Source: a virus
Taxonomy: Duplodnaviria > Caudoviricetes
Length of the DNA: 64,000 nt
IMG/VR virus record: IMGVR_UViG_3300020050_009209
Strand: one strand, 5' to 3'
Made by a program: the position numbers and the translations under genes. Under the pieces are notes generated by a model. It had not been told where the DNA came from and did no database searches. It was given only the letters and a program-made list of their open reading frames with translations. Of this stretch, positions 3,415-39,138 are shown piece by piece; position 1 is the stretch's first letter, and each line of letters begins with the position of its first letter.

Positions 3415-3696
3415 CTACATGCAAAAGCCGACCATGAAGGCTTCCGAGCAAGGGTGGACCAAGTCGGCCTTCACCTCAAATTCAGAAGCCCAACCAGTCC
3501 GCCCCGCTTCAGCTTCAGCGCAAAAAGCGTTACAGATGATCTCCACGGCTTCGTCTCTACAGTCTACAGTGTTCACGGTTTGTCCTGCAACCGTACGCAA
3601 CTCTGCGATCTGAGGGTGATCTGACGGTACAAGGAAAAACCGAACGTTTTCAGGGAACTCTGCGTACACAACCAGGGTCTTATTTGGGGTAGTCAT
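3415..3696 (-). CDS. hypothetical protein
   Basis: ATG 9 nt after promoter CGTA. Confidence 0.8.
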   Translation of the reverse strand: MTTPNKTLVVYAEFPENVRFFLVPSDHPQIAELRTVAGQTVNTVDCRDEAVEIICNAFCAEAEAGRTGWASEFEVKADLVHPCSEAFMVGFCM

Positions 3697-3705
3697 AGGT
3701 GTCCT

Positions 3706-3731
3706 TACGGTGGAAGCTCAGGAAGGCTTAA
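3706..3731 (-). repeat. 26-bp direct repeat copy 2 (exact promoter duplicate)
   Basis: Identical to 2912-2937. Confidence 0.95.
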
Positions 3732-4599: not shown

Positions 4600-5844
4600 A
4601 TGAGTGCGAACAGGCCAATTTCTGAAACACTAGTCGAAGACTCTTACTATCCACCGTGCAATCAAGACGTTTTCAAACGAGGCATTGGTCTCGTGGCTGT
4701 TGATGGGTGGGCTAAGGATGTGGAGCCTTGGGTACGGCGAGTCGCCGAACTTTCCGGTCAATTGGTGGATTGGCACTACTCAGGAGGAGTCGCCAATGTG
4801 CTAGTTCTTGGCGACCACGCGAAGGCAACCGCAGCTGCGAAGATCCTAATTCCTAGCCCTGGAATTCGAGTTATGCGTTGGTTTTCTGGCGGCGCCTCTC
4901 TTTTCCGGGCTGGAGACCCCGTACCGGAAGGTACTGTTGGTGTGGACGCCTCGGCTACCTTCCTATCCTCAGTGGGGAGTTGTGAACCTCCCAAGGGCCT
5001 GCACTCTTACCGGTTCAAGGACAACCCAGACGAAGCGAAGTTTGCTGAGATTTGGGGCAAACCAGGCTTTAGTGATCACTTGAAGTACCTCCTGTGTGAG
5101 GGAGATCAACACTACCCCAACCCTCCCAGTGATCGAGATGTTACCGTAGCTGCTACGGTCATCCAGTGGCTTGGCTCCCCTGTTGGTCAGCAGTTCCTAG
5201 AAGAGGTTGGATTCAAGGCTGCGGCAATGGCCAGCCTACATCGAGTCGTAGAGGCTGGGTGCCGAGGCGTCTTCCTCATCAACCAGGGGATGGATGCGCC
5301 AGCCGTTCTGTCTCTAGCAAGACAGGCTAAAAAAGAGTACCCTTGGATTTGGGTTGGACTCAACCTGCTAGGACACTCGCTAGAGTGGTCCTACGGGATA
5401 ATCAACGCTTCTCAGCTTGACGGAATGTGGGCAGACAACACGGAAGTTACCCAAGCTGGGATCAGTGGTCTTTTTGACCACATATCAAATCGACCTGGGT
5501 ACTCTACGCTCTTTGGTGGAGTGGCCTTCAAGTACCAAACTCCAGTGGCATTTGAGGATCTGCGTCGTACAGCCCAGCTGGCCTCTGTCTACGTTGACGT
5601 AGTCACCACCTCGGGTCCAGGCACGGGTCAAGCAGCAGATCTCAATAAGATCAAGGAGATGAAGCTTGGGGTTGGTAGCAAGGCCCTTGGTCTTGCCTCT
5701 GGAGTCACGCTAGAGAACGTCGAGTTGTACAAGCCCTACGTGAGCGCCTTTCTTGTGGGGACCGGCATTGAGCAGTCGCTTGGGGTCATTGACCTCGCGA
5801 AGGCTACAGAGCTACGTAGAGCCATTGAGGAGACCACCCCGTGA
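4600..5844 (+). CDS. chimeric protein with C-terminal BtpA/SgcQ-like TIM barrel
   Basis: C-terminal GVFLINQ, WVGLN, FGGVAFKYQ, TTSGPGTG, ASGVTLEN, LVGT; ATG 9 nt after promoter. Confidence 0.7.
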   Translation: MSANRPISETLVEDSYYPPCNQDVFKRGIGLVAVDGWAKDVEPWVRRVAELSGQLVDWHYSGGVANVLVLGDHAKATAAAKILIPSPGIRVMRWFSGGASLFRAGDPVPEGTVGVDASATFLSSVGSCEPPKGLHSYRFKDNPDEAKFAEIWGKPGFSDHLKYLLCEGDQHYPNPPSDRDVTVAATVIQWLGSPVGQQFLEEVGFKAAAMASLHRVVEAGCRGVFLINQGMDAPAVLSLARQAKKEYPWIWVGLNLLGHSLEWSYGIINASQLDGMWADNTEVTQAGISGLFDHISNRPGYSTLFGGVAFKYQTPVAFEDLRRTAQLASVYVDVVTTSGPGTGQAADLNKIKEMKLGVGSKALGLASGVTLENVELYKPYVSAFLVGTGIEQSLGVIDLAKATELRRAIEETTP

Positions 5845-6398: not shown

Positions 6399-6581
6399 AT
6401 GAAGAAGCTCACCTGGGTTAGCACCTCAACCTACCTCCAAGTCTACTCCTCCCGCGCTCAGGCGGTTATCCACGCCCCTGAGGGAGCTTACCTCCTCAAC
6501 CACGACAAGACTTCCAACACTTGCGCGAGCATCCCCTTCGCCAAGATTGTCAACGGCAAGGCCGTGAAGGTTTACTCATGA
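6399..6581 (+). CDS. hypothetical protein
   Basis: ATG 9 nt after promoter. Confidence 0.75.
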   Translation: MKKLTWVSTSTYLQVYSSRAQAVIHAPEGAYLLNHDKTSNTCASIPFAKIVNGKAVKVYS

Positions 6582-37073: not shown

Positions 37074-37090
37074 ACTTCACACAAAGCGAA

Positions 37091-37124
37091 GAAGGGGGAG
37101 GTTGCTAGAACAACCTCCCCCTTC
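37091..37124. terminator. bidirectional terminator at convergence
   Basis: gaagggggaggttg-ctagaa-caacctcccccttc. Confidence 0.85.
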
Positions 37125-37128
37125 TCTT

Positions 37129-37734
37129 TCACGGGTCTTGTGGGACAATCACGGCAACCGACTGGTCTGGGTAGTGAGTGATTACGTTGATTAGAGCCGC
37201 ATCCACAAGCTTCTGAGCCTGAGTAAGCAAGTCTTCGTCGACCTGCTCGAATGCGTCCTCGTGGTGATCTTCCAGCCACCCTGCACACTCACGATGAAGG
37301 TCAACGGTAGGTGCCTCAGCTTTGGTGCCCCACACGAAACGAACGCCGTCAACCTCAGAGCACTCCCTGACGTCCCCATCCCAGTCGTCAGCTTCGATGT
37401 AATGGTCGTCCCCAGGGGCAACTACAAGCCCACGGTAACGCTCCATGGGTACCTTCGTGGCAGCTCGGAATGCGGCCTCAAGGGAAGCTCTCTCACTCAG
37501 CACCTTACAGGGATCGCAGTAGCCAGAGTAGTGGAATCGAGGCGAGGCCCCACAGGTTATACATTCTGGTAGGTCGCAATGCTTACGAACCGCAGCAATG
37601 GCTCGCTCTTGAGCTTCAGGCCCCTCTCCAAAGGAGGACACGAAGACGAGAAACCTGCAATGCCCCTCATTTCCACCACAGAATGCTGCGTAGGGGTTCC
37701 CATTTCTATCGTAGGCTAGGATTGGTTCAGTCAT
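37129..37734 (-). CDS. hypothetical protein
   Basis: CITC...CDPC; start moved to ATG 37734. Confidence 0.75.
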   Translation of the reverse strand: MTEPILAYDRNGNPYAAFCGGNEGHCRFLVFVSSFGEGPEAQERAIAAVRKHCDLPECITCGASPRFHYSGYCDPCKVLSERASLEAAFRAATKVPMERYRGLVVAPGDDHYIEADDWDGDVRECSEVDGVRFVWGTKAEAPTVDLHRECAGWLEDHHEDAFEQVDEDLLTQAQKLVDAALINVITHYPDQSVAVIVPQDP

Positions 37735-38040
37735 GCTCTTCTCAATCAAATGTGTAGTGAAATATGCCCCACTTAACTTCAACCGACTCGTAGGCCTTAC
37801 TTAGGGAGGGAATCAAGTCGACTGCAAAGATCCGCATCCCCTCTATGGCGAGGTCTTTCTCAGCCTCAGATGGGATCTGGCATGCTTCGGAAAATTCCTT
37901 GCATGTGGCTTTTGACAGCCTCCTCCAACCGGAAGAGCTTGTCCTGAAGGTCTTTCGCCGTACCCTCTAGAATCTCTTGAGCCCGTTCTTGACAGAGGGC
38001 ATTGTACTGCTCCATGAGCAACTCTATGAAGAGTTTAGGG

Positions 38041-38418
38041 TCAATGTCTACTCCGTTGACAGACACCTTGACGTCTACTTCCAGTTCTCGACATGCGCTC
38101 GAATTCGCAGCGCAGCTTTCGCAGCGCGTGCGCCTCGATGCATCGGACGCGCTCCCTGCTCAGCCCGAGCACGTCGGCGATCTCTTGCAGCGTCATCGCG
38201 TACTCGGTCACCTCGTGCGGTTCACGCTCGCTCTCCCCCTCCTCGACGCGTGCCGCGCTCGCGTCGTAGATGCGGGGCCCAAAGGCATCTTCTAGGTCTC
38301 GCATCGTGCCGAGCCGCAACGACTCATCGCGCTCGAACTCGTCGGGGCGATGGGACAGGAGGAGCGCGCGCAGCCGCGGCGTCAGTCTGCGCCACTGCTC
38401 AGCCTGCTTTGGCGTCAC
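38041..38418 (-). CDS. sigma70 region-4 HTH protein on GC-rich insert
   Basis: MTLQEIADVLGLSRERVRCIEAHALRKLR matches the region 4.2 consensus. Confidence 0.85.
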   Translation of the reverse strand: MTPKQAEQWRRLTPRLRALLLSHRPDEFERDESLRLGTMRDLEDAFGPRIYDASAARVEEGESEREPHEVTEYAMTLQEIADVLGLSRERVRCIEAHALRKLRCEFERMSRTGSRRQGVCQRSRH

Positions 38419-38457
38419 TTCGCTACTCCGTTGACAGACACCTTGACGTCTACTTCC
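38048..38457. mobile_element. 340-bp insertion flanked by perfect 35-bp direct repeats
   Basis: ctactccgttgacagacaccttgacgtctacttcc at 38048-38082 and 38423-38457. Confidence 0.85.
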
Positions 38458-38624
38458 GAGTCAGCCTTCACCCCATCCGGGAAGTAGGTTCGAGCGAAGT
38501 CCACCTCCCCATCCTTTCCGGACATAGCTCCTAGAAGGAGCTTGGCAAAATCAGTGTTTCCGGTCAGACTCATTGCAGGATACTTCATGTCCTTACCTAC
38601 GTATCGACCAAGGTACGGTTTAAG

Positions 38625-39094: not shown

Positions 39095-39138
39095 TTACTT
39101 CCTCTCAGAACGCATTGCAAAACGTTAATAGCACAGAT

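Follow-up and report, generated by a model that had tools for sequence, protein, structure and literature searches.

The published parallel to the locus analysed here is the mycobacteriophage LRRHood, in which 29-bp repeats surround a stolen repressor gene (Pope et al. 2011, PLoS One 6:e16329, PMC3029335). The authors of that study could not reconstruct the insertion event (PMC3029335). In our re-examination of this case, the 29-mer was perfect at positions 5043-5071 and 6399-6427 of the LRRHood sequence (L012). The C1 relatives of LRRHood carry the flanks only, over 345 bp, and are exactly 1356 bp shorter, and the insert is homologous to the donor-type phage Phalconet (96.9%) up to a point 1 nt short of the second repeat copy. 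The 21 nt upstream of the first repeat (L012 5024-5044) recur, with 20 of 21 positions identical, at 5118-5138, which is 46 nt inside the insert. This recurrence could reflect multi-step template switching, chance or gene-end homology. A more general framework is given by phage morons and the illegitimate-recombination model of mosaicism of Juhala, Hendrix and colleagues (summarised in PMC3029335). Templated insertions produced by microhomology-mediated template switching or break-induced replication are a further relevant class of event (PMC8421209, PMC5120786). Such insertions concern eukaryotic genomes and use templates of the same genome. We know of no demonstration of templated insertion in phages of this kind. 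Among mobile elements, IS1634 and IS1549 generate long and variable target duplications, and Cas1-type integration duplicates a repeat of ~30-37 bp. Phage genomes are mosaics, for which random illegitimate recombination followed by selection is the accepted cause. To our knowledge, the raw event of illegitimate recombination has almost never been seen.

The locus described here lies in a stretch of 64,000 nucleotides, which we call the window. The recipient is a very large phage, with contigs of up to 382 kb and a GC content of 52.6%. The insertion consists of three elements:

38048-38082, no strand assigned: copy 1 of the 35-bp target duplication, the downstream copy in gene orientation
38083-38422, minus strand: foreign insert, a fragment of a donor phage, with 66.8% GC and a BLAST match to the donor
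38423-38457, no strand assigned: copy 2 of the 35-bp target duplication, the upstream copy in gene orientation; single copy in the relatives L006 and L008

This arrangement shares the architecture of LRRHood and occurs in an uncultured phage that is unrelated to LRRHood and much larger. In both cases the recipient is large (LRRHood has 154 kb, 30 tRNAs and an RNA ligase, and an RNA ligase is also encoded in the window), and the foreign DNA bears a transcription regulator of a temperate phage that is nearly identical to that of the donor. Each insert lies between two perfect copies of a repeat of ~30 bp, of which close relatives have only one, and neither insert is accompanied by a mobility gene. 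However, the LRRHood insert measures 1.33 kb, contains four genes, is located at a gene end and has a lower GC content than its host genome, whereas the window insert comprises 340 bp with one truncated gene, lies inside an ORF and has a higher GC content. LRRHood carries a repressor whose exclusion role is testable, whereas the cargo here is a predicted sigma region-4 protein. In contrast to LRRHood, the donor flanks, the empty site and the filled site are all resolved for the window insert. Like a phage moron, the insert is present here, absent from the relatives L006 and L008, deviant in GC content (66.8% versus 52.6%) and gained without homology. Unlike morons, which are intergenic and carry their own promoter and terminator, it splits an ORF and uses the signals of the host gene. 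Morons are also usually seen long after the event, when the junction signatures are gone.

The perfect direct repeat has the sequence CTACTCCGTTGACAGACACCTTGACGTCTACTTCC. By chance, a repeated 35-mer is expected ~1e-12 times in 64 kb. To judge the base composition of the insert, we used 340-bp segments across the 64-kb stretch, which have a mean GC content of 52.6% with a standard deviation of 2.7%; the insert is the maximum of the window. The DNA flanking it has a GC content of ~50%, and the insert is 14 GC points higher. No terminal inverted repeats involving the insert ends were found. A Pfam search of 100 window ORFs, representing 64 kb of a ~380-kb genome, gave no match to an integrase, transposase, Cas1, Ku or reverse transcriptase; an HNH nuclease, a GmrSD-like protein and the RNA ligase were detected in the same search. 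The insert is present once in the 64-kb window, and its coding content is a truncated Sigma70_r4 ORF alone. Neither 4 kb around the site (megablast) nor the insert (blastn) matched cultured phages or plasmids, and nothing was found in an exact scan of viral contigs for the 35-mer or in a 28-mer scan of metagenome contigs.

The filled site carries three reading frames:

38415-38588, minus strand: N-terminal half of the interrupted ORF, 57 aa; starts with ATG at 38588, runs through repeat copy 2 and ends at a TGA stop 8 nt into the insert
38041-38418, minus strand: chimeric ORF, 125 aa; GTG start, with 112 donor residues and 13 residues from the repeat read in another frame
37866-38066, minus strand: C-terminal half of the interrupted ORF, 66 aa; GTG start inside the repeat, 99% DNA identity to L006 1937-2145

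Deleting the insert together with one repeat copy gives a single continuous ORF of 115 aa on the minus strand. A search with the 57-aa half for longer proteins identified a natural uninterrupted version of 127 aa (P0007), which agrees with the healed ORF over the first 113 residues; the 57-aa half is 100% identical to residues 1-55 of P0007. In tblastn searches against cultured phages, no match to the host ORF was obtained.

The empty site is preserved in L006. Positions 1289-2145 of this relative are contiguous and correspond to window 39105-38425 (100% identity) followed by 38082-37874 (99%). With one copy of the 35-mer, L006 is shorter than the window by exactly 375 bp (340 + 35). A second empty site was found in L008, a more distant relative with 91-96% identity. 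Filled sites were also recovered. L007, from JGI metagenome 3300005664, agrees with the window at 100% of positions over 10,772 bp, a stretch in which both repeats are included. L009, from JGI 3300020047, spans the upstream junction and has 99.68% identity over 947 bp, with 3 SNPs. The 57-aa (P0012), 125-aa and 66-aa (P0008) products are encoded on 7, 6 and 6 JGI contigs, respectively, the longest of which has 381,772 bp. Both repeat copies of the window share a lineage-specific A at a position where L006 carries G, which indicates that the duplicate was copied within the window's own lineage.

The origin of the insert could be traced to GC-rich phages. Proteins with 88-96% identity to the 125-aa ORF are encoded on contigs of 70-73% GC, and the donor members (P0001-P0006 and P0015) belong to a conserved operon of GC-rich phage contigs. 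The native Sigma70_r4 gene of the donors encodes 119-122 aa. In L001 (30.6 kb), this gene is located downstream of a helicase gene and upstream of a gene for a VapE-type primase; the same contig carries a peptidase_M78/HTH_3 pair, a terminase gene and an SU10-type capsid gene. In L002, which like L001 has long flanks, and in L003, the gene also lies downstream of this helicase. L004 and more than 10 contigs with P0015 contain part of the same operon, and in the P0015 contigs the gene is upstream of the VapE primase. In L010, a shorter form of the gene is part of a different replication module. The donor is a phage of 70-73% GC that is apparently temperate. In tblastn searches of cultured phages, no match to the donor protein was obtained; for the donor primase and a large window protein, the relatives among these phages are all distant (at most 34% identity). 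A sigma-r4 alignment search of genome contigs found nothing and identified no host.

BLAST alignment of the insert with L004 and L005 gave identities of 97.4-97.7%. Compared to L004, there are no substitutions over 340 bp; the sole difference is an extra 9-bp repeat unit in L004. Donor homology covers window 38423-38082 only; it goes no further than the edges of the repeats, where each junction allows for 1 nt of microhomology. The captured fragment extends in the donor from 4 nt before the GTG start codon, just past the ribosome-binding site, to ~8 codons before the stop codon. None of the six donor loci contains the 35-mer, even when 10 substitutions are allowed. Because the 35-mer is missing from the donors and homology ends at the repeat edges, the repeat is a true target duplication. 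The first-pass annotation of this DNA, made from the sequence alone, had described a 35-bp target duplication around 340 bp of higher-GC DNA, without terminal inverted repeats or recombinase, whose deletion restores a phage ORF of ~115 aa. Each of these points held: the GC contents differ as stated (66.8% versus 52.6%), the 35-mer is single-copy in L006 and L008 and absent from the donors, the insert ends and the 100 window ORFs gave no sign of a mobile element, and the healed ORF has 115 aa and a natural counterpart in P0007.

We then considered the product of the captured gene. The chimera matches the Pfam family Sigma70_r4 (PF04545) with 41.2 bits (cutoff 24.1; E-value 1.2e-10) over residues 74-103. 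Residues 75-104 align with region 4.2 of RpoD and SigA chains in the PDB, in agreement with the region-4.2 helix-turn-helix that had been noticed in the first reading. The helix-turn-helix is whole in the chimera, and its recognition helix, SRERVRCIEAHALRKLR, is close to the aligned RpoD helix. The last 7 residues of the donor protein are the sole loss, and the donor allele P0015 is identical to the chimera over all 112 captured residues. No match to sigma region 2 was found in the chimera (protein length 119-125 aa). Since region 2 is absent, the captured product is, by its predicted domain content, a stand-alone region-4 protein and not a sigma factor. The nearest Atlas clusters consist of viral proteins of 73-110 aa that bear only Sigma70_r4, and tailed phages commonly encode small proteins with this domain alone. 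With AlphaFold2, the 125-aa chimera gave a poor model (pLDDT 56.8). Among the donors, the gene has a dN/dS of 0.08-0.17, indicating purifying selection and hence a working gene in the donors. L009 differs from the window at only 3 positions, all of them inside the insert, with no difference in 731 bp of flank. The variants at L009 785, 788 and 812 (window 38369, 38366 and 38342) all fall on second codon positions and are nonsynonymous (R17P, A18V and D26G), and none of the three agrees with a known donor allele. On this single short contig, the changes hint at relaxed constraint or a mixed-read consensus, and they would fit relaxed constraint better than conserved function.

Transcription of the captured gene would depend on two elements outside the insert:

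38598-38623, minus strand: promoter-like motif TTAA-N18-CGTA, 10 nt upstream of the ATG (38588) of the interrupted ORF
37089-37126, minus strand: terminator-like hairpin with a 17-bp stem, which ends the transcription unit containing the insert

The TTAA-N18-CGTA motif occurs 40 times in the window, compared to 0.9 expected occurrences, and its strand tracks blocks of opposite GC skew (plus up to ~33 kb, minus from ~38.6 kb). It looks like the phage's own promoter class, which is unlike a sigma-70 promoter. Apart from a weak 7-bp stem in a 217-aa ORF, no other terminator-like site was found between the motif and the hairpin, and the insert itself contains neither the promoter motif nor a terminator-like site. 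The insert is co-oriented with the host ORF and lies behind the promoter-like motif of that ORF. The earlier assignment of the insert to the transcription unit of the interrupted gene is therefore supported by the motif at 38623-38598(-) and by the lack of a strong terminator before 37126-37089(-). For translation, the repeat provides GGAG 7 nt upstream of the GTG of the chimera. This GTG, at 38418, overlaps the stop codon of the upstream 57-aa ORF (GTGA), and the GTGA start-stop overlap of the donor is in frame with the host ORF. Co-orientation and an in-frame stop have a joint chance of ~1 in 6, so selection is not demonstrated by them. Judging from these signals, the 125-aa chimera is probably expressed. 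It could be either a neutral passenger or a regulator used against, or instead of, the donor-type phage. An action of the chimera on host -35 recognition is speculation. The duplicated target (38048-38082 and 38423-38457) contains TTGACA and TTGACG on the plus strand, 12 nt apart, and two such hexamers on one strand are found in 0.13% of the 35-nt windows of the 64-kb stretch. Because the hexamers are Val-Lys and Val-Asn codons of the host ORF, we regard their pairing with the RpoD-like, -35-reading helix of the captured protein as a post hoc coincidence.

It is likely that a single recent event of illegitimate recombination, without a transposon, gave rise to this locus, in which a very large phage has captured a fragment of a foreign regulator gene and acquired a 35-bp target duplication. 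Other origins have to be weighed against this. The source is metagenomic and donor-type sequences are common in public metagenomes, so that reads of a GC-rich phage from the same sample might have been misjoined into the contig of the big phage. Such an assembly chimera is highly improbable, because the same junction is present in two JGI metagenomes (one with 3 SNPs) and on 6-7 contigs in all. Furthermore, insert and target share 1 nt per end and therefore no common k-mer by which they could be joined, and a perfect 35-bp target duplication is not produced by a chimera. Misassembly, the objection foreseen in the first-pass annotation, is thus made very unlikely by an indirect test, namely the junction shared by 3300005664 and 3300020047. 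Direct repeats are also expected if two genomes recombine by a shared 35-bp sequence, since homologous or site-specific (Campbell-type) integration via a common core yields them, and in a variant of this explanation an ancestral segment would have been lost from the relatives. Pope et al. weighed both options for LRRHood (PMC3029335). Here, the 35-mer is missing from 6 of 6 donor loci and the match to the donors goes no further than the repeats. The 35-mer is mid-ORF coding sequence, the ORF being unbroken in relatives, and a segment that equals a donor allele, with a GC content 14 points higher than that of its flanks, is not ancestral. We consider recombination via the shared 35 bp, including loss from relatives, largely refuted by these comparisons and assign it hardly any probability.

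Insertion by an enzyme would account for the flanking duplication, which is the classic mark of staggered strand transfer. A transposase or integrase of the IS1634/IS1549 type, or a Cas1- or casposase-like enzyme, would have acted in trans and attacked the strands ~35 bp apart, with the 340 bp as non-autonomous cargo; 35 bp is within the range of CRISPR repeat duplication. The resemblance to these systems lies in the direct target duplication of tens of base pairs. In contrast, the systems have defined ends or a fixed-size cargo and a dedicated enzyme, none of which was found in the window. The insert has no terminal inverted repeats, its ends are arbitrary with regard to a donor gene which is syntenic and not mobile in every donor contig, and, unlike an IS or MITE with its several copies, it is present only once in the 64-kb window. 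No transposase, Cas1 or integrase was found among the 100 window ORFs, and the cargo, with its arbitrary ends, is ~10 times the size of a spacer. This makes enzymatic insertion in trans unlikely, if somewhat less remote than the other alternatives. The fragment is co-linear with one gene, as it would be if a donor mRNA fragment had been reverse-transcribed and inserted by target-primed synthesis, and target-primed reverse transcription typically leaves target duplications that are long and variable. Against retro-insertion, there is no reverse transcriptase among the window ORFs and no A-tail or other 3' signature. The fragment also has its start within the preceding gene of a polycistronic operon and its end within a coding region, so the ends of a transcript are not matched, and we give this route very little credence. 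Taken together, the arbitrary donor ends, the lack of inverted repeats and the target duplication speak for the exclusion of ordinary transposition, of homologous or site-specific exchange and of loss in the relatives.

Illegitimate recombination between two phages thus remains as the preferred reading. The signs of recency are the absence of substitutions compared to L004 over 340 bp and the perfect repeat; the recent capture proposed in the first-pass annotation is supported in this way, and a GC-rich phage donor has been identified. In the event that we envisage, both phages would be co-replicating in one host cell. A nascent 3' end might leave the template of the big phage and prime on donor DNA with ~1 nt of microhomology; 340 nt would be copied before the end returned 35 nt behind its departure point. 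Alternatively, a break with 35-nt staggered ends might be filled in and blunt-joined to a donor fragment. Either mechanism implies that both phages replicated in the same cell. We place template switching only slightly ahead of staggered-break repair, and both fit the data equally well. The staggered cut with fill-in suggested by the first-pass annotation is therefore compatible with the data, but it is not the only mechanism that is. Its view of the mechanism as unusual also stands in part: the mechanism is unusual, but a precedent exists in the 29-bp repeats of LRRHood (PMC3029335). Eukaryotic templated insertions show the same features of an ectopic template, zero to a few nucleotides of microhomology at both junctions and a flanking duplication that results from re-entry upstream of the exit point. 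They differ in that the template in the window case would be the genome of another virus.

With more reserve, one may ask if large phages possess a recurrent, undescribed capture route, by which arbitrary fragments of co-infecting genomes are inserted with long target duplications of variable length and without mobility genes. We regard this as a doubtful proposal with a low chance of being correct. Such a route could be driven by the phage's own replication or repair machinery or by nicking endonucleases, and LRRHood could be another instance. The first-pass annotation had extended its mechanism to other repeat-flanked modules of this DNA, which fails for the one that was checked. A 40-nt repeat at 2898-2937 and 3692-3731 (85% identity, with the last 26 nt identical), the one further pair of long repeats in the window, brackets ~800 bp. 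We rejected it as a second target duplication, as it coincides with two copies of the promoter motif and represents a duplicated promoter.

With donor, empty site and filled site available at near-identity, both junctions can be read to the base. From the junctions, two mechanisms are left, template switching and staggered-break repair, a narrowing that the authors of the LRRHood study could not achieve. The event would also place a giant phage of 52.6% GC and an apparently temperate phage of 70% GC in the same host cell, which is useful information on the host of two uncultured viruses. Provided that the captured region-4 protein is made and is active, the locus would be the second example of a large phage taking the regulator of a temperate competitor. 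On the preferred reading, the locus is a rare, fresh example of gene gain by a phage without a transposon.

Further differences between the window and its relatives were noted near the insert. Positions 598-1288 of L006 form a 691-bp segment with an N6_N4 DNA methyltransferase gene, and the window has 25 unrelated bases instead (39105-39131). This indel was considered as a repeat-flanked event and rejected, since neither a flanking repeat nor a GC shift accompanies it. The Cys-rich ORF of 217 aa (37129-37782, minus strand) immediately follows the interrupted gene in the same transcription unit. It has no Pfam or PHROG match and no relative in viral contigs, and it is absent from the empty-site relatives. 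A second mosaic junction is located at 37874 (minus strand), at the 3' end of the interrupted ORF. Here, similarity to L006 and L008 stops 8 nt before the stop codon of the ORF. The protein ends with ...SMPDPI in the window and with ...SMPDQEWQNPYPASQKAE in L006 and L008, and the downstream genes differ as well.
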